From: Naegleria gruberi
Taxonomy: Eukaryota
Direction: 5' to 3' (one strand)
Assembly: GCA_000004985.1 (NCBI GenBank)
Contig: GG738882.1
Length of the DNA: 64,000 nt
A program made the position numbers and the translations under genes. The notes beneath the pieces are model-generated. The model saw only the letters and a program-made list of their open reading frames with translations, was not told the origin of the DNA and made no database searches. Within the stretch, counting starts at the first letter, position 1. Every line of letters starts with the position of its first letter. This document shows, in pieces, positions 18,674-30,513 of the stretch.

Positions 18674-21516
18674 TTAGGCAGTGGTTGTTGTGTTGAATAA
18701 ATTTGTACCAGTGTAATTGAGATAGAGAGGACCAACAACAAGAGTGATGGTGGCTAATAATTTACAAAGAACGTGAATACTTGGACCAGTTGTGTCTTTG
18801 AAAGGATCTCCAATAGTATCACCAATAACAGCTGCTTTGTGAATGGCAGATCCTTTACCTCCGAGAACCTTGTCCATTTCAGTCAACTTCTTAGCATTAT
18901 CCCAAGCTCCACCAGCATTATTGAAGAAGAGAGCCATTAAGATACAAGTAATAGTAGCAACCATCAAGAAACCAGCACTAACTTCTGCTCCTAGATTTGG
19001 TTGCCCCACAGCAGCACCAACACCCTTAAATATAAACCCAACCAAGACTGGAACTAAAACAGACAAAAGACCTGGGAAGATCATTTGTATGAGAGATGCA
19101 CGAGTAACAATGGCAACACATCTTTCATAGTTTGGCTTTTCTCTGAATTCGAGAATACCTGGCATTTCTTGGAATTGTTTTCTAACTTCTTCAATAACAG
19201 TTTGGGCTGTTGTACCAACAGCTCTCATTGTCAAAGAGCTGAAAACAAAGACTAAGCAAGCACCAATGAGACCTCCAACAAAGACTTCTGGAACTGCAAG
19301 ATTAACAACCTTAAAGCTAGTTCCAATGTATGCTTCAACAGTATCAAGGAAAGCAGAGAATAAAAGGAAAGCAGCAAGGGCAGCAGATCCAATAGCATAA
19401 CCCTTTGTAAGAGCCTTAGTAGTGTTACCGACAGCATCTAATCTGTCAGTAATCATTCTTACATTAGCTGGTAATTGGGACATTTCAGCAATACCACCTG
19501 CATTATCAACAATTGGTCCAAGAGTATCCATAGCTAAAATATAACTAGAAGAACTAAGCATACCAATGGTAGCGACAGCTGTACCAAATAATCCACCAAT
19601 TGGTAATCCATTTTCATCAGTAATTCCACTACTTTTGCCGAGGTAGTAAGATGAAAGAATAGCAACACAAATAACAAAAACAGGGGCACCAGTTGATTCT
19701 AAACCTACAGCAATACCTGAAATAATGTTAGTAGCAGGTCCACTCTTAGACGATTCAATAATTTCCTTCACAGGTCTCCAATTAAAGTCAGTATAATAAA
19801 TGGTGATAAAGACAAATGCAAAAGAGGTAAGAACACCAATCAATCCACAAAGCATAAACTTCCACCAAGCATTTGGATAAACATCAGATCTCAATAACCA
19901 ATATGAACAAACTACAAAGAGGCAAGTTGTGACCAGAACGCTGACATAAAAACCACGGTTGAGGGCCTTCATTGGATCATCAAGGAACTCTTGTCTGATA
20001 GATGATTCTTCATTTTCTTCATTTTCCATTAAGGTTGTTTCTGACAACTCAGTATTACGAATGAGAGAATAGCTATCGTCTCCAGCACTTCCCATCTCTG
20101 TGACATCTCTAACACGAACAAAGAACATTCCTACCCAAGTTCCAATCATACCACAAACGTGAACAACAAGTGGGAAAATAATATATGAAAGTGGGGTTGA
20201 AATTTGAGGGAATGCATTGGAAGTAAGGGTACCTGCTAAAATCATTACACCTATATTTTCAGCAGAAATACTTTCGAATAAATCAGAACCTCTTCCTGCA
20301 CAATCACCAACGTTATCTCCAACAAGATCAGCAATAACAGCAGGATTTCTAATGTCATCTTCTGGAATATTTTGTTCAACCTTTCCGACAAGATCAGCAC
20401 CAACATCTGCAGCCTTGGTAAAGATACCTCCTCCAAGTTGAGCAAATAATGCTGATAAGCTGCAACCAAAAGAAAATCCGACAATCATTCCAACAATTTG
20501 AGTAGGAGTAATCATTTCCTTTGGAATGGCAAGATATAAAATAGAGAAAAGTACAATAACTCCCAATACAGATAAAGAAACTACTAAAAATCCAACAAAA
20601 GCTCCAGATCTCATTGCAATATTTAAAGCTTCTCTGTAGCTTCTTGTAGCAGCATTGGTTACTCTCGAGTTTGCATTAACTGATACAAACATTCCAACAA
20701 ATCCAGATAATCCAGAAAATAAAACTCCAATCAAGAAACTAATAGTAACTATAGCAGCAATGGCTGCAATATGAATATCAGGGTCTGTAGAACTTTTTGA
20801 CCTTAATAAATAAAGACCAAATAATAAGAAAGCAACTGGGATAGTAATACCACCTATTGCCAAATATTGAGTTTTTAAGAATCCACTGGCTCCTTCCTTA
20901 ATAGGATCAGCTACAGCAATCATTGCACTAGTACCTCTATTTTTTCTCATCACATAAACAGCAATAAAGAAAGCTCCTACCATTGAAAGCAAACAAGAGA
21001 CAATCACAAATGAAATTTGTCCCCAAGCTTCACCGTAAACAGGTGCTGTAACAGTATATGAAAATGAAACTGCTGTTGTATCATTTGTATATTTAAGTTT
21101 GCTATTAAGAGATGCTGAAATTGAGCCAACACCTGGTGTGTTACCAGCTGTGAGGGAAGTAAATACTCTTCCATCGATTCCCGATTTTGCAATTGATGGG
21201 GAAAAGTATGGTTTCATCTTATAATTTGATTTTGGGGTTGCGTAAAAATACACAGTTACATTCGGAACAGGATTACCCAATTCACCAAGAACCTGAACAA
21301 CCAATGATTTGGAGTATTTTGTTGAGGCTTCGAGTGTAACAGCTTCCATTGGCTGCATCAACTTAATTTTATATGTTTGAGCAACTGTGATCATCATCCG
21401 AAGTTAAATATTAATAAGATAATTGTTATCAACCTACCGATCGATCCAATCATCGTTAAAAGAATCATACAGACCACAAACCATGATGGTCTTTCAGTGA
21501 TTCTTGTTCTGTGCAT
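18674..21516 (-). CDS. H+-translocating pyrophosphatase (V-PPase) with signal-peptide exon and N-terminal lumenal extension
   Basis: Exon 1 21438..21516 (MHRTRITERPSWFVVCMILLTMIGSI, donor G|GTAGGT), a 53-nt intron, then exon 2 18674..21384. CDS 2790 nt = 929 aa. Core V-PPase motifs GGGIFTKAADVGADLVGKVE, DNVGDCAGRGSD and KAAVIGDTIGDPFKDTTGPS. About 120 non-PPase residues sit between the signal peptide and the first PPase TM helix. Confidence 0.85.
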
Positions 21517-22089: not shown

Positions 22090-23538
22090 ATGCGGCCTTC
22101 CTCTGCATTGAATAAGACTTCATCAAGTAGTGTTCGTTTAACTCCGGTGAGAGAGAGGGATGGCAGACCCCTCACTACTAAGGCTCGTAAGTTGTCGATT
22201 ATTTTCATTATTAAAATGATCAACTTCATCATTTCTTTTTCCCCCATTAAATAGAGATGGAAGTACCCGGACCAGGAAATTATAATATAAAATCATCGAT
22301 TGGAGAAGGAACAAAAGTTTCCCTTCATGGAAGATATGGCGATGTGAGTAAGTATTTTCTTTTCAGCACAAAATTGAAAATATTTAATAGTTGAGAGAAG
22401 AGCAGGACCAGGACCTGGTTCTTATACAACCCGAGGAGACTTTGAGATGGATCAAAGCGTTCGATCAAGAAAAGGATTCAGTTTAAGTTCTAGACATAAG
22501 GAAATAGCCTCTGGTGCAAATCCAGTAGGTCCTGGTGCTTATACTTTACCTTCAGAGTTTGAACAATCACCAAGAAAGGGATTTTCAATTTCTGGAAGAA
22601 CATCATCTGCATCCAAAATCAATAATCCAGGACCAGGAAGCTACTTTAAGGAAAATAGTTTTCTAAATAATCAATCACCAAAGTATTCATTATCGGGAAG
22701 ACACTCCATTTCATCAGCAATTAATCCAGTAGTAGGACCAGGATCATACAAGTCAAAATCAGATTTTGAGATCTCTTCAAAGGGATTTTCAATTTCAGGA
22801 AGAACTAAATCAAACACAAAATCATTTGTTCCTGGGCCAGGTCAATATTCTCTAGGCACTGATTTCAATACAGAAGGAAAGAAGGGATTTTCTCTTTCCT
22901 ATCGTCATAAGGAATTATCCCCAACAAGTGTAGTACCTGGACCTGGTGCATATACTGTTCCTACATCATTTAATGGTTCACAAAGTGCAAGTTTTAAGGG
23001 AAGGACGAAAGAAATGAATGGCAAATTTGATAATCCAGGTCCTGGAGCTTATCAATCTAAATCCGATTTTGAACTAGGAAAGAAGGGATTCAGCCTTTCT
23101 GGAAGACATAGAGATAATTCACCAAATTCTTTTTCTCCTGGGCCAGGTGCTTATCAAAACAAATCAGATTTCGAATCTCATTATGGATCACCTAGATTTT
23201 CATTCTCTGGAAGACACAGAGATATGTCACCAAATAACACATCTGTTGGACCTGGAAGTTACAACTTGCCAACAGATTTCAATAATAGTCCAAAGAAAGG
23301 ATTTTCTCTGTCGTCTAGACACAGAGATTTATCCCCAACCAGTGTAGTACCTGGACCTGGAGCTTATCAAAACAAATCAGACTTTGAGGGGTCAATGAGA
23401 TCTCCAAAAGGTTATTCACTTTCAGGAAGAACGAGTCTAGCTAACAGGTCGATGGAAGGTGTTCCAGGACCTGGCCAATATTCTCTTGGAAGTACAATTG
23501 GAACATCACCAGCCCATGTATTTGGTACTGGAATTTAA
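22090..23538 (+). CDS. SHIPPO-repeat (sperm-tail PG-rich repeat, ODF3-like) flagellar-type protein
   Basis: Three exons 22090..22186, 22255..22347 and 22391..23538 (GTAAGT donors; introns 68 and 43 nt). CDS 1338 nt = 445 aa. About 14 tandem PGPG(A/S)Y...KGFS(L/I)SGR units. Confidence 0.8.
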
Positions 23539-23552
23539 CATGTATTATAAAT

Positions 23553-25494
23553 TTATTTTTGTAAAAGAGCATTAATCTCATTAATTTTCACTGGGAGAAG
23601 CGAGACCATTTGTTGTGCCAACTCGTACTCTGTTTTCGAATCGTCTAGAATAGTATTATTAGCCTTGAAGAATTTAACACAAAATTCATATTCTTTCAAA
23701 CTTTTTGCCATATACTCAATTGTCTTAGTTGGATCGGATGAAATATAATTATAGTACATTCTTGCAACAATTAAACGGGATCTAAAGTATGCTGGTTTGT
23801 TTTCATCTTCAATATTAACTTTGGAAGACTCTACAAATAATTCAGAAAACTTTCCAAATATTGTTATAGTTTTGGAAATACTTTCATTCGTTAAAATTAA
23901 ATAGCTCAAACATGGTACTTACATTGTGTTAATTTTCTTCATACTTGCTTCCTTATATTTGTCCTTCAACTTGTTCTTCAACAATAATAACTCAAAAATG
24001 GATACATAAGTTTCTCCCACTTCAAATGCAATTTGTTTAAGGATGGATCTATAATGAGCCACATTCAATTCATCAATATTTTTCTCCAACAAATCGAGAC
24101 GTCTTTCATGCATTCCACTTTTTGAAATTAAGCAAATAATTTGAGCATGTGATAAACTTACATTTTTCTATCGAGATTTTCTTCGAAAAATATTATCAAT
24201 TTGTAGAGAGAGCTGAGATCTTGTTGTAACTTAATATGATCGGTAACAAATCCGTCAATTACATAGTATTCCATTGATTTTTCAAAACACTTCTTTCCTT
24301 CTCTGAAAATTTCGAGAGCCTCACTAAAGTTTCTGCAAACATACGAGTCAGCTTCATTGTGTTCAATTGGAATGTTATTGAAATAGAATGTATCAAAATC
24401 GTGTCTCTTTTGAATAATTTCCTTCTTTCCATCTTCAGCAACTGCTAGGATACCCTCTGAAATTCTATTGCTTTCATTTAATTCAACCCACGATTTGCTA
24501 TAAATTAACTTGTCGAGACATAATTTTCCTTTGGCCATTGCTACCTTAGCAACAACTTCTTGTTCAATTGTTGAACCGGATGGATTTTGTAAGAGCACGT
24601 ACTCAGCTGCTTTTATAAAGTGAAGAGCAGTCTTATAATCCAAGGCATCTAAAAAGAATGCTGATAATTGTAAACAATTTTCAGCCCAGTCTATCTTGTT
24701 GAATTCAAGCCCACTATCCAATTGTCTTTGAAGAGTGAGATAGCAATATCTTGCTGCTAATTTTGGTTCAGTTGAAACTTGAGCAAGATAGTAGGCTGTT
24801 AATGTGAATGCTCCTTCCATATTCTTTGCAACTTGTTGATCTACTTCTTGTTCATTTTGTTTGAAGAATGAGTAAATATCCTCAGCCCTTTTTAAATATT
24901 CTCTGGCTTTCTCAAAATCATTTCTTTTCGACCAAATTGCACCCAAATAGTTGTATGATTCTGTCATATTATGGATATATTTTAGTTGGGTTGGAGTAGT
25001 GGTATCGGAAATCAAACATTCATGAATAGAAACCAATGAAGAAACTGGTTCGTTTGTAGTGCCAGTCTTTTTAGTTTCACAAACATTTCCTTTCGTATGA
25101 TCTCCTATACAATTAATAGCCTTAATTAAATGATTTTCAGCAGAAGAAACTTCATCTGTGTCATAACAAATTTTTGCTATATTCAACAATACTTTTCCAA
25201 ATAAACATTTTAATTTTTCATTTCCTACTAATTCTTTTGCCATTGCTTCCTATTCCAAGTTAATATATTTCTCCAAATCCCACTTACCAAATCATCTCTG
25301 GCCTTATACTTGTTAGAGTACGGCTGTTCCTCATCCTCTGGTTCTGTTTCCGCCAATTCAATAGCTTCAGCAATCCCTTTGTTGATTTTTTCAATTTGTT
25401 CATCATCGGAAGTGGTCTTGCTCATCATTGTATTGTTGCTGGTGTTTTGTGTTGCTGGATCGATGATAGTGGCTTCCTCTGGCAATAAACTCAT
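23553..25494 (-). CDS. kinesin-binding protein KIFBP (KBP/KIAA1279) homolog
   Basis: Four exons 25288..25494, 24162..25249, 23923..24117 and 23553..23880. Introns 38, 44 and 42 nt, all GTAAGT donors. CDS 1818 nt = 605 aa. Blocks matching human KIFBP: PYSNKYKARDDL, AYYLAQVS, LQRQLD, IDWAENCLQLSAFF, EYYVIDGFVTDHI, SLKEYEFCVKFF and QMVSLLPVKINE. Confidence 0.8.
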
Positions 25495-25713: not shown

Positions 25714-27281
25714 ATGAAACTTGGAGCACTCAACAGTCTTGTCAGAAACCAAAAGCTTCAACAGGCAGCAAAGAGTTTTAGACCACAAGAAGAATCAACT
25801 AGTCAAGAAAATTCCACACAAAGTTTACTCTTCGATATCGGAACCTTTAGTCTTCATGGTGGTTTATTGAATGGACAAGATCAAGTGGTACCACTTGTGA
25901 AAGATTTCCATTCATGGGTTTATAGATATGATCTTACACGTGGTTTTGCTAAAGGATTAGATGAAAACAAGTTATATTTTGGATTACAATCACATGAATC
26001 TGCTTCTTTCATTCCATATCCAATTGTTAAAAGTGGTGGATGGTTCAGTAATTTGAATGATTTTTCAAAATTGATTAAAGAAGTTGTTAGCAATGTTGAT
26101 GAAAAGTTTAAATCCAAGACTGAAAATTTACCATTCTTAATGACTGGTTATGAATATTTAAATGGACAAAATAAGGCATTGGCAAAGTTGACTCAAGTTG
26201 TTTTTGAAGAATTGAAAAGTTCTAAATTTGCATTCCAGGAACAAACTAAATGTGGTCTAGTTGCCTCAGGTTTGACAAATGGAACAGTTGTAAATATTGG
26301 TTTTGGAACTAATTATTCAATTACCTATGAAGATGGTTGTCCAAAATCTCACATTATTAATCATGGATTGAATGGAAATTACTTTTCAGACCTTTTTGTA
26401 AAGATGATGACAGATCGTGAACAATATGTTGACACACGTAGTGATAGAGCTCGTGTTGTAAAAGCTAAGGATGCAAATTCATTTATTTCTTTGAATTATG
26501 ATTCTGAAAATGTACCTCCAATTGATTATCAATTACCTGATGGAAAGATTATTCATTTGGAAAATGAAAGATACGAAGCTTATGAAAGGTATGTGTTTCA
26601 ATTGAATTGATTATTGAATTTTTAACTTTAAAAAGCTTATTCGAACCAACAAGAAACTTTATTAATCCATACAAACCACTTGAGGAATCATTCATTCCTC
26701 TTCCACAAATGATTCTCAAACACCAAACTACCAACAAATCAGTGTTAGAGAATATTCTATTGATGGGTGGAGTTTCGACATTGAACGGTTTAAGACAGAG
26801 ATTATTCATGGAATTGGATTTGCTTGCTAAGGATGACACTATCAATTGGAATATTATTCAAGCTCAAGATAAATATTTGGCTTATAAGGGTCTTTCAATG
26901 ATGGCTTCAATGAGCTCTTTTGAGAGTTGTTACATTACCAAGCAAGAATATGAAGAGAGTGGTGACTCTGTCTATGTGAGAAGATTCCCAAGAGTTATTT
27001 CAGTCGCTGATGAAGATGAGGAAGATTACAAGAGAACCACTGAGGAAAATACTGAGAGAGAAGAAAACTTCAAATCTCAAGAAGAACCAAAAGAAGAACA
27101 AAAAGCTGTTGAAAATACCAAGCCTTTAGTAGAACAAGAACAACCAAAGATTGAAAAGAAGGCTTCAACTGATTTTGACACTCAAATGGAACAACTCAAA
27201 AAGTTGAAAGAATTACTGGACTCGGGTATTCTTACTCAAGAAGAATTTGCCGAAAAGAAGAAGAAAGTTCTTGGATTATAA
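25714..27281 (+). CDS. divergent actin-related protein with acidic C-terminal extension ending in a SHOCT-like motif
   Basis: Exons 25714..26588 and 26636..27281 with a 47-nt intron (AG|GTATGT ... AAAAAG). CDS 1521 nt = 506 aa. Actin-fold blocks: LLFDIGTFSLHGG, VVNIGFGTNYSITYEDG, LPDGKIIHLENERYEAYE, ILLMGGVSTLNGLRQRL and ITKQEYEESGDSVYVRRF. An extra ~95-aa tail is acidic and ends MEQLKKLKELLDSGILTQEEFAEKKKKVLGL. Confidence 0.7.
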
Positions 27282-27314: not shown

Positions 27315-28325
27315 TTACTTTTTCTTTTCAGCTTGTTCTTTAGCTTTTTCAATTAAAGGTAACAATTCTTTTTCTTCGGCCAAAATCTTCAATAAATTTA
27401 CAAGGAAAGGAACATAATTGTGTCTTCTTCTGGCATTTTCTTGCTTCCATTGGTTGTGTTTTTCTTCTTCCATTTGGAGGTTTGCTTGAACAAGACTAAT
27501 CTTTTCGAATGAGTTTGGTTCTTCTGTTTGGAGACGTACCAATTCTTGTTCGAGTTGTTGTTTCTTATTTCCAATAACAGCCATCAAATTGAATTTAATT
27601 TCATGTTCGGAATACTTTTGAATTCTATTTTGAATTTCAGGAATAATCTTTTCAACCCAATTTTCGTTTGAACATTCACCCAAAAGAATTGGACCACCCT
27701 TCAAACCATCTAATTCATATAAATTTCCTTTAAATGGCAAATATGCAATAAAGTGGAATACATCATCGTCTTTCTTTGGTTTCTTACTCTCCTCAATAAT
27801 GAATGGTTCTGGTCTAGCAAAAGCATTGTGTGCTTGTTTTATCAATTCACTACTTCCAATACTTTCTCCAATAACATCGGATGGAAGACCCAATGAAAAG
27901 GATTTAAATTGTGTAAGCTCATCTCCAAGTTCAACTTTGGCTTCATTTGTATCAATATTCATGAGAATGGACAAAATGGCTTGTGTTGCACAAGCATTTG
28001 TAACAATTTGTTGGGCATAAAACATTCCTTCTGGTGCTTGTTCAAGAATTGGTCTTTCATCTTTTTCCGACATCCACTTGAAAAGAAAGATTAAACCATA
28101 AATTGGTCTTTAGATGAAAAATCAAACAAAATAAATATTAAATATTGTGATCACACCATACTAAAATTAGGCTTGTTTCTCATCATCAACTTACTTTAAT
28201 TCCGAAAGAGTTTCATGATCTAAAGCCCAAAGTTCTTCAACTTGCACTCCTTTAACTCCAAACTTTTCGATCAATTCAGTGAATACGCCAGGATCAGATT
28301 CAATAGTTGTCCAGTTTGATGACAT
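27315..28325 (-). CDS. ubiquitin C-terminal hydrolase, UCH37/UCHL5 type (peptidase C12)
   Basis: Exons 28195..28325 and 27315..28107 with an 87-nt intron (AA|GTAAGT ... CTAAAG). CDS 924 nt = 307 aa. [19 protein letters not shown], catalytic-Cys region [37 protein letters not shown], and the UCH37-type C-terminal coiled extension. Confidence 0.85.
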
Positions 28326-28526: not shown

Positions 28527-30513
28527 ATGTCTTCAAAAGGTGGAGGTGATGATATTAAATTGGAGATTGAACGAAGAAAAGAGGAAATAAGGAGGAAGAA
28601 GGAAGCTCTGGAGGCATACAAGAATAAGAAATCTGCCTCAGGACAAAAAGTGTCTTTCATTGAGGGATTAGTGCCTCCGAGATCAGCACAACCTCAACAA
28701 ACTCCAACAGAATTGGAAGATAAACAAGAGAAAATATCTACTGCTGTGGATGATTCTAAAATATCAAAACAATCTGTTGTGCCCTTAGTGGATACTAAAA
28801 AAGCAGCAGCAATACAAAGAGGCGAATTATTTGATATTACGAATAATGGAACGATAATTTCAGAAGTTGGAGGAGAGGTAAAACGAGTGAGGGAATTAAA
28901 ATTAATTTCGAGAGTTAATGTAATTGATCTACCTCCGATTGTAAGTTGTCGAATATAACAGAAAATTTGAATTGGAATAGTCGAAAATGATTTATGAAAA
29001 ATCGTCACAAACCGATAGGGAATTCGAGGAACAAACAGTTGCAAAAATAATTGAGGTAGGACCAAATACAAAACAAGGAATTAATGTGGACGACTTGATT
29101 GTCACTGACGATTCTGATTTTACAATACCAGCAGAATACCTTACTAGTATTGAGACAGTCAAGGAAGAGAAATTGGAACAAGAGGATATTGAAAAGAAGT
29201 ACAAAGAAATTTCATCGACTAAGGAATTCCAAGAATTCTTTTTCAAGGCTTCAAGATTTGTTGAAAAGTGTGTCAGACAGCCCTTTGATCCTTTGTTGGA
29301 TTATGCAGATGATTTCACCAACAGCTTCCAAGTTTCAAAATCTGAAAAAGTTAATTTGGAAACAACATTTTTCGATCAAAATATTTGCCAACAGAAAGCT
29401 GTCACTAGCTTATCGTGGTCCCCTAAATTTGAGGAGTTGTTCCTAGCAACATATTGCAGTAGTGATGTTTTGCACGAAAATGAAGGTTTGGTACTTGTTT
29501 GGAATCAACATTATGCAAGAAAACCTGAGCTTCATCTTCATTGTGAAACTCCAATTAGTACAGCTCAATTTTACTCATATAATCCAAGCTTGGTGATAGG
29601 AGGAACATACACTGGTCAGATAGTTGTTTGGGATATTAGAGAAAAAACCTCAGCTCCTGTTATTAGAACTGCCATTAGCTCAAGAAGCCATACTGAGCCA
29701 ATCTTTGGTATGGAAATTGTTGGAAGTTCTGAAGCAGGTCACAATCTTGTGACAATGAGTACTGATGGAAGAATTTGCACTTGGTCGATGAACAAGTTGG
29801 ACACACCACCAGAAGTTGTTGATCTAACCATAACTAAATACGAGCAGCAAGAAAATTCAACACCAACCAATCCAGTAGAATTGATTCAAGGATTAGAACG
29901 TAATTCAGTATATGCACCAACCTCAATTTTGTCCCAAGTAATGAAATTCCCAAAGGGAGAAATTAATAGATTCTATGTTGGTAGCGAGAATGGAATAATC
30001 TACTCTGCAGATAGGTTTGGAAGTAAGAAAGGACTCAATACTGACAAATATCAAGGTCACTTGGCTCCTATTACCTCACTTGATTCACATCCAACGATGG
30101 AATTCTCAGATTTGCTAATTTCATCGAGTATGGATTGGACTTGTAAATTGTGGTGTCAAAGAAAGCAAACATCCCTAATTTCATTTGATGAATTTGAAGA
30201 TTATGTGTACGATGTGAAATGGTCACCTCAAAATCCATCCTTATTTGCAGCAGTTGATGGAGCTGGTATTTTGAGTCTTTGGAATATTAATATTGATCAA
30301 GAAATGCCTATTTACAAAACATCTGTTTGTTCATCAGCATTGAATAAGTTAGAATGGTCAAGAGATGGCAAGAGATTAGTGACAGGATCACTATCTGGAA
30401 GTGTGTATATGTATAATATTGATGAAGAAATTGGAATACCTAAACAAAAGGAATTAGAAACTAAATTATTGGAATCTGTAATAGTTGATTTAGTGGCAGC
30501 TGATACTCTATAA
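28527..30513 (+). CDS. cytoplasmic dynein intermediate chain (WD40)
   Basis: Exons 28527..28940 and 28981..30513 with a 40-nt intron (ATT|GTAAGT ... GGAATAG). CDS 1947 nt = 648 aa. N-terminal coiled coil (KLEIERRKEEIRRKKEALEAYK); WD40 blocks LVLVWNQHYARKPELHLHC, VIGGTYTGQIVVWD and DWTCKLW. Confidence 0.8.

Follow-up and report, generated by a model that had tools for sequence, protein, structure and literature searches.

The SHOCT domain (PF09851), defined by Eberhardt et al. 2013 (PMC3581485), belongs to a family that is mostly bacterial and archaeal, where it usually follows membrane or Band-7 modules, and it is carried by 19 eukaryotic species. Naegleria gruberi, which is given its own section in that paper, has 14 SHOCT proteins, 1 of them with eight repeats, and Table S3 lists an Actin~SHOCT architecture (n=1) together with CH~SHOCT, CH~SHOCTx3, SHOCT~VHP, Ax_dynein_light~SHOCT, and Tubulin_2~SHOCT; the cytoskeletal SHOCT fusions are nowhere discussed in its main text. 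SHOCT-like domains have been predicted to act as anchors that hold proteins at the inner membrane leaflet (2024 PSP paper, PMC11237479), and proteomes of the secretome and of extracellular vesicles contain another SHOCT protein of Naegleria fowleri (A0A6A5CCE5, 69 kDa) in abundance. We analyzed an Actin~SHOCT gene at positions 25714-27281 on the plus strand of a stretch of 64,000 nucleotides of the N. gruberi contig GG738882.1 (assembly GCA_000004985.1; hereafter the window), which encodes an actin-like core followed by a charged linker and by SHOCT at the C-terminus.

On the actin side, the closest described systems are conventional actin (PF00022), of which N. gruberi is reported to have an expanded complement (78 actins and actin-related proteins, Arps), and those actin-superfamily proteins that work as subunits of complexes and not as filaments, namely the canonical Arps (Arp1-Arp6, Arp8, and Arp10/11) and tArp. 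The latter is lineage-specific, being found only in stramenopiles, alveolates, and Rhizaria (SAR), and offers a precedent for clade-restricted Arps. Further, the axonemal actin-like proteins of kinetoplastids (ALPs; PDB 9y6s and 9e5c) are divergent actin-fold paralogues from Discoba that do not form filaments and whose paralogue-specific terminal extensions are considered to help in docking; every single-headed inner-arm dynein of Leishmania has its own ALP along with a centrin-like protein or a DNALI1-like dimer. The Actin~SHOCT protein and its layout are already known, since Pfam, UniProt, and the SHOCT paper each contain the architecture. An initial annotation, made from the sequence alone, had called SHOCT unexpected on a eukaryotic Arp, which overstates the case given the entry in Table S3, the 14 SHOCT proteins of N. 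gruberi, and the existing name of the UniProt record D2VM90. Beyond this catalogue, the present analysis adds little, mainly the conservation pattern and the active-site analysis.

Two long open reading frames (ORFs) in differing frames, 25714-26610 and 26607-27281, cover the region; the frame breaks at 26610, and continuity needs an intron to be removed. We read from the sequence a 47-nt intron (GTATGT...AAAAAG, phase 2) at 26589-26635, and its excision leaves an uninterrupted coding sequence of 1521 nt with a 506-aa product and regains the actin motif ENERYEAYESLFEP, the splice junction ENERYEAYE/SLFEPT corresponding to actin's GNERFRCPEALFQPS. Exon 1 (25714-26588) starts with the ATG at 25714 and holds codons 1-291 plus 2 nt of codon 292, and exon 2 (26636-27281) holds the remaining actin core, the linker, SHOCT, and the TAA stop (27279-27281), so that the passage from actin core to SHOCT tail is read in one uninterrupted frame within a single exon. 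The spliced product is 100% identical to the N. gruberi protein EFC41947.1 / XP_002674691.1 / UniProt D2VM90 (NAEGRDRAFT_70053), which UniProt names "SHOCT domain-containing protein." The initial annotation had placed the gene exactly, as the ATG and stop codon confirm, without mentioning the intron. ORF callers on European Nucleotide Archive assemblies cut the gene in two at this intron (P0003, P0007). The match to the annotated protein marks the window as nuclear DNA of N. gruberi, with a GC content of ~33%.

The protein terminates in MEQLKKLKELLDSGILTQEEFAEKKKKVLGL, which had been described as a close match to the SHOCT consensus, with a profile search, a comparison of orthologues, and a structure prediction of the tail proposed as checks. 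Searched with the Pfam hidden Markov model (HMM; gathering cut-off 27 bits), the match is significant, scoring 38.7 bits (E=7.6e-10) at aa 477-504 (27189-27272), over profile positions 1-28 of 28 and with no indels, and 45.1 bits (E=7.4e-12) when the tail is searched alone. None of 10 control tails (1 reversed and 9 composition-preserving shuffles) matched SHOCT at E<=10, and the motif is the only SHOCT-like one in the six-frame translation of the window. Structure prediction with AlphaFold2 (AF2), from an alignment of 68 sequences (mean predicted local distance difference test [pLDDT] 85.7; predicted template modelling score [pTM] 0.78), gave a confident two-helix hairpin at aa 472-504 (27174-27272), with helices at 472-487 and 493-504 and block-mean pLDDT of 89-96 over aa 471-500. 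The turn between the helices is D-S-G-I and the domain stops 2 residues short of the stop codon, so the predicted tail has the two short amphipathic helices, the Gly-containing turn, and the C-terminal site that characterize SHOCT. By residue count the hairpin is approximately neutral (~+1), with negative mean hydrophobicity and a hydrophobic moment of 0.30-0.32, that is, moderately amphipathic.

Bacterial-type membrane proteins with tails ~80% identical by eye, terminal ILGL included, were also identified, ending in ...LELKKLKKLLDMGILTQEEFDEKKKQILGL (P0174) and ...AEQLKKLKELLDCGILSQEEFDTKKKQILGL (P0226). On the strength of the HMM score, the negative shuffle controls, and these near-identical bacterial-type tails, the sequence identifies the tail as a bona fide SHOCT domain by homology and not by convergence. 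It shares with the family the full 28-residue match, the C-terminal site, the two-helix hairpin, and the conserved Gly turn and Glu; unlike the usual bacterial and archaeal members, it comes after an actin fold of a soluble, eukaryotic kind and a spacer that is long and acidic. A tandem (synthetic 6x) tail query returned mainly bacterial Band_7_1~SHOCT proteins, multi-SHOCT proteins, and exon-2 fragments of the same gene (P0007, P0160). The 44-aa tail query returned 3 candidates and 1 archaeal match with no Naegleria SHOCT paralogues listed; because the targets found with such short or synthetic queries were all close to the query in length, and full-length orthologues with near-identical tails were missed too, this does not imply that paralogues are absent. 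A search of PDB sequences with the tail gave only SNX5, at an insignificant E of ~1, and did not lead to a solved SHOCT structure. Among metagenomic bacterial-type membrane and multi-SHOCT proteins, the SHOCT units of P0174, P0226, P0156, and P0157 all resemble the Naegleria tail at ~80% by eye; with conservation this high across the family, identity alone does not reveal where the Naegleria copies came from.

The actin-like core (aa 36-409; 25819-26987, split by the intron) bears out the divergent actin fold that had been claimed for the protein. Pfam Actin (PF00022) matches aa 84-409 with 118.6 bits (E=3.3e-34), and the best 60 matches in a PDB sequence search were all conventional actins (~105 bits, E=4e-29), with query residues 77-407 aligned to actin 42-372 with short gaps only. 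All 50 of the 50 matches listed by Foldseek for the AF2 model were actin structures (template modelling score 0.82-0.87, with 0.85 to actin; 24-27% identity), so that both an actin-family HMM match and the four-subdomain actin fold were found. Identity to actin is only 25-30%. In a comparison of actin relatives, identity was 28% for actin and 18-20% for the kinetoplastid ALPs, which are the second-best structural matches, with Arps below actin. The Arp label of the initial annotation could not be upheld: we found no orthology to the canonical Arp classes (Arp1-11), and no large insertions of Arp type were seen in the alignment of query 77-407 to actin. The protein belongs to no conserved Arp class and is an orphan actin-like protein, lineage-restricted, with conventional actins as its nearest relatives. 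When 1.84 billion representative proteins were scanned exhaustively with HMMER, only Naegleria and Willaertia sequences scored >450 bits, the next match having 138 bits, and the 9 next-ranked matches that were scanned were ordinary or tandem actins without SHOCT (Pfam Actin 280-670 bits). Among sequenced genomes, the Actin~SHOCT protein is thus restricted to Naegleria and Willaertia, whereas tArp is restricted to SAR.

The nucleotide site departs from that of conventional actin at the positions involved in hydrolysis. We identified NIGF/YGTNY at the phosphate-2 loop in 4 out of 4 orthologues, where actin has DSGDGVTH (numbering checked against PDB 3chw), and the resulting changes D154N, D157F/Y, and H161Y are common to all 4. 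The phosphate-1 loop is DIGTF in each of the 4 orthologues (actin, DNGSG; G15F), T303 is replaced by V, and R210 by V or M in the orthologue comparison, while D11, Q137, G156, G158, G301-G302, and K213 are unchanged. The conserved set of nucleotide-hydrolysis residues (D11, Q137, D154, and H161, with loops DNGSG and DSGDG) is therefore not complete despite the retention of D11 and Q137. Across the actin/Hsp70 superfamily, replacement of Asp by Asn at the site of D154, together with a missing H161, would be expected to cripple hydrolysis. As the catalytic positions are substituted, ATP hydrolysis has probably been lost or much reduced.

Orthologues with the same Actin+SHOCT architecture were identified in Naegleria lovaniensis (XP_044551347.1), N. 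fowleri (XP_044561923.1 / A0A6A5BTX6), and Willaertia magna (KAL9642115.1), with BLASTP identities to the query of 64%, 63%, and 52%, respectively, and the tail is kept in all of them. The SHOCT domain is 89-93% identical to that of N. gruberi in the Naegleria species and 75% in Willaertia, without gaps or insertions in the 4 orthologues. The corresponding values are 71-72% and 55% for the actin core, 66-69% and 40% for the N-terminal extension, and 38% and 30% for the acidic linker, which has insertions of 23-25 residues in N. lovaniensis and N. fowleri. By these identities, the strongest constraint in the protein lies on SHOCT, and an order of SHOCT, then core, then linker, with indels in the linker, is the pattern expected of a functional end-module on a variable tether. 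In N. fowleri, an 87-nt intron occupies the same codon position, also in phase 2, between YE and SLF (L001 4894-4980), and the gene order is as in N. gruberi (KBP / Actin~SHOCT / UCH37 / WD40). In place of the YE/SLF intron, the Willaertia gene contains one of 43 nt at codon 78 (L002 4236-4278), in a neighborhood that is partly rearranged.

The core is flanked by two extensions that set the protein apart from conventional actin, which has an acidic N-terminus. The N-terminal extension (aa 1-35; 25714-25818) carries the conserved basic sequence MKLGALNSLVRNQKLQQAAKSFRP, has a net charge of +5 with no acidic residue in its first 24 aa, and forms a helix at aa 3-21 in the AF2 model; its hydrophobic moment is low (0.14). 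One possibility is that this basic helix is a targeting peptide, another that it pairs with the acidic linker. A mitochondrial presequence was also considered for it and not favored, the hydrophobic moment being low. After the core, the initial annotation had described a tail of ~95 residues with an acidic stretch, and we confirmed a tail of 97 residues (aa 410-506), in which aa 410-468 contain 19 D/E and 11 K/R for a net charge of -8. The acidic, charged linker (aa 410-470; 26988-27170) has predicted helices at 418-441 and 443-450, followed by a low-confidence segment, with block-mean pLDDT of ~50-60 over aa 441-470 and below 50 at 463-466. Two short motifs in the tail were considered and dropped, namely an Arp2/3-binding acidic motif (ADEDEEDY), whose aromatic residue varies in orthologues, and a WH2-like LKKL, which has no Pfam WH2 match and sits inside a SHOCT helix.

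We favor, with about as much confidence as doubt, an interpretation of the Actin~SHOCT protein as a hydrolysis-deficient, non-treadmilling actin-fold scaffold or complex subunit that carries a SHOCT docking hairpin on a charged spacer. The actin-like core would serve as a scaffold or complex subunit and not as a filament-forming actin, the charged helical spacer and the low-confidence, probably flexible segment would keep the SHOCT hairpin apart from the core, and docking at a partner or site would be the task of the hairpin, most likely through protein-protein contact. The AF2 model is consistent with this arrangement, with a confident core and SHOCT hairpin parted by a helix and a low-confidence segment, and in Table S3 SHOCT also accompanies cytoskeletal domains of eukaryotic type, namely CH, VHP, and Ax_dynein_light. 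The gradient of conservation from SHOCT through core to tether favors protein-protein docking, and protein contact is favored over electrostatic binding to acidic membranes because the hairpin is approximately neutral and moderately amphipathic and follows a linker of net charge -8.

Several points weigh against this interpretation. The substituted phosphate loops resemble loops of the Hsp70/MreB type, so nucleotide binding may persist. We know of no SHOCT partner in any organism, and in the literature we found no mention of the Actin~SHOCT gene, protein, or orthologues by identifier. The host species of the CH, VHP, and Ax_dynein_light SHOCT architectures are not stated in Table S3 of PMC3581485, and the sole experimental test of SHOCT, size-exclusion chromatography of a CD4-SHOCT fusion with a bacterial SHOCT, detected no multimerization (PMC3581485). 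The initial annotation had presented oligomerization and membrane association as functions of SHOCT; in view of this chromatography result and of an anchoring role that is only predicted, both are better regarded as hypotheses. On expression of the Actin~SHOCT gene, nothing was found in PMC7594500, PMC11772885, and PMC10802493.

Other explanations of the protein depend on which of its parts is taken as the guide. Taken from the structural neighbors of the core, of which kinetoplastid ALPs are the nearest after actin, the protein might be an ALP that, in the flagellate stage of Naegleria, is a subunit of a single-headed inner-arm dynein, with the SHOCT tail as a paralogue-specific docking extension that possibly pairs with a SHOCT-bearing DNALI1/p28-like light chain, an idea to which the existence of the Ax_dynein_light~SHOCT architecture (Table S3, PMC3581485) lends some substance. 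We consider it unlikely: the 18-20% identity to ALPs is no higher than to Arps and lower than the 28% to actin, the N-terminal 152 aa had no significant PDB sequence match and so establish no specific ALP link, and Leishmania ALPs are ATP-bound, whereas the catalytic residues of Actin~SHOCT are substituted. SHOCT is not reported on the kinetoplastid ALPs, the species in which Ax_dynein_light~SHOCT occurs is not given, and no expression support was retrieved. Taken from the tail, the SHOCT hairpin might be a membrane anchor that tethers the actin-like domain at the inner leaflet of the plasma membrane or at an organelle membrane, as the anchoring predicted for SHOCT-like domains (PMC11237479), the usual position of bacterial SHOCT after membrane or Band-7 modules, and a KKKK cluster in helix 2 next to the hydrophobic VLGL end would suggest. 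The hairpin, with its charge of ~+1, negative mean hydrophobicity, and moment of 0.30-0.32, and with a linker of -8 in front of it, speaks against such a role, the protein is without a transmembrane segment or lipidation motif, and the anchoring of SHOCT-like domains is itself a prediction; this explanation too is improbable.

A filament-forming isoform, one of the 78 N. gruberi actins and Arps, that polymerizes or co-polymerizes and decorates filaments with its tail would account for a core of actin length (77-407 = actin 42-372), for conventional actins being the nearest relatives, and for the great expansion of the actin/Arp family in this species. It is nonetheless very unlikely, since identity to actin is only 25-30%, Pfam Actin gives 119 bits compared with 280-670 for the next-ranked actins, the D154N, D157F/Y, and H161Y changes at hydrolysis positions are conserved, and a basic helix takes the place of the acidic N-terminus. 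The initial annotation had also allowed that the SHOCT resemblance may be convergent amphipathic-helix chemistry, and the short length (28 aa) and simple K/E/L-rich composition of the domain would agree with convergence or with an artefact such as a fused gene model, bacterial contamination, or an assembly error. This explanation is refuted, with scarcely any probability left to it, by the 38.7-45.1 bits over the full profile against a cut-off of 27, the 0/10 controls, and the P0174 and P0226 tails (~80% by eye), which indicate homology. Further, core and tail lie in one exon and frame in a gene with a spliceosomal intron, and the same architecture is found in 3 other genomes, with gene order kept in N. 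fowleri and partly rearranged in Willaertia.

The window also contains several other genes around Actin~SHOCT. Upstream and divergent on the minus strand, a homologue of KIF1-binding protein (24158-25494; KBP_C, E=8e-26, plus TPR) falls into two ORFs that overlap and differ in frame (24158-25243 and 25228-25494), so that a short intron is implied, and this neighbor is also present in N. fowleri (L001 1770-3771). Downstream and convergent on the minus strand is a UCH37/UCHL5-type deubiquitinase (27315-28073; Peptidase_C12 and UCH_C), whose stop codon is 33 nt from that of the Actin~SHOCT gene; its ORF begins at position 73 of the Peptidase_C12 profile, and a 5' exon past 28073 is therefore expected. 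A WD40 beta-propeller protein is encoded at 28987-30513 on the plus strand and lies beside UCH37 in N. fowleri as well. Approximately 2 kb from Actin~SHOCT, positions 22447-23538 on the plus strand encode a protein of 363 aa that has four SHIPPO / sperm-tail PG-rich repeats (E=1.4e-42), a family linked to flagella and axonemes. Positions 18674-21397 on the minus strand encode a membrane H+-pyrophosphatase (801 bits).

SHOCT is a very widespread domain, and here it is fused to a well-understood fold in 3 Naegleria species, including the pathogen N. fowleri, and in Willaertia. As it is under stronger constraint than the core, on a known fold and in several species, the Actin~SHOCT protein offers a tractable handle on what SHOCT binds. 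A broader and speculative scenario, which we rate as having a low probability, is that Naegleria co-opted the bacterial-type SHOCT hairpin as a common module for docking or pairing within the cytoskeleton, possibly also on CH-domain, villin-headpiece, and DNALI1/p28-like proteins, with Actin~SHOCT as an ALP of inner-arm-dynein type or another complex subunit placed by SHOCT-SHOCT or SHOCT-partner contacts. If true, such a shared cytoskeletal module would be the first cellular function for SHOCT.
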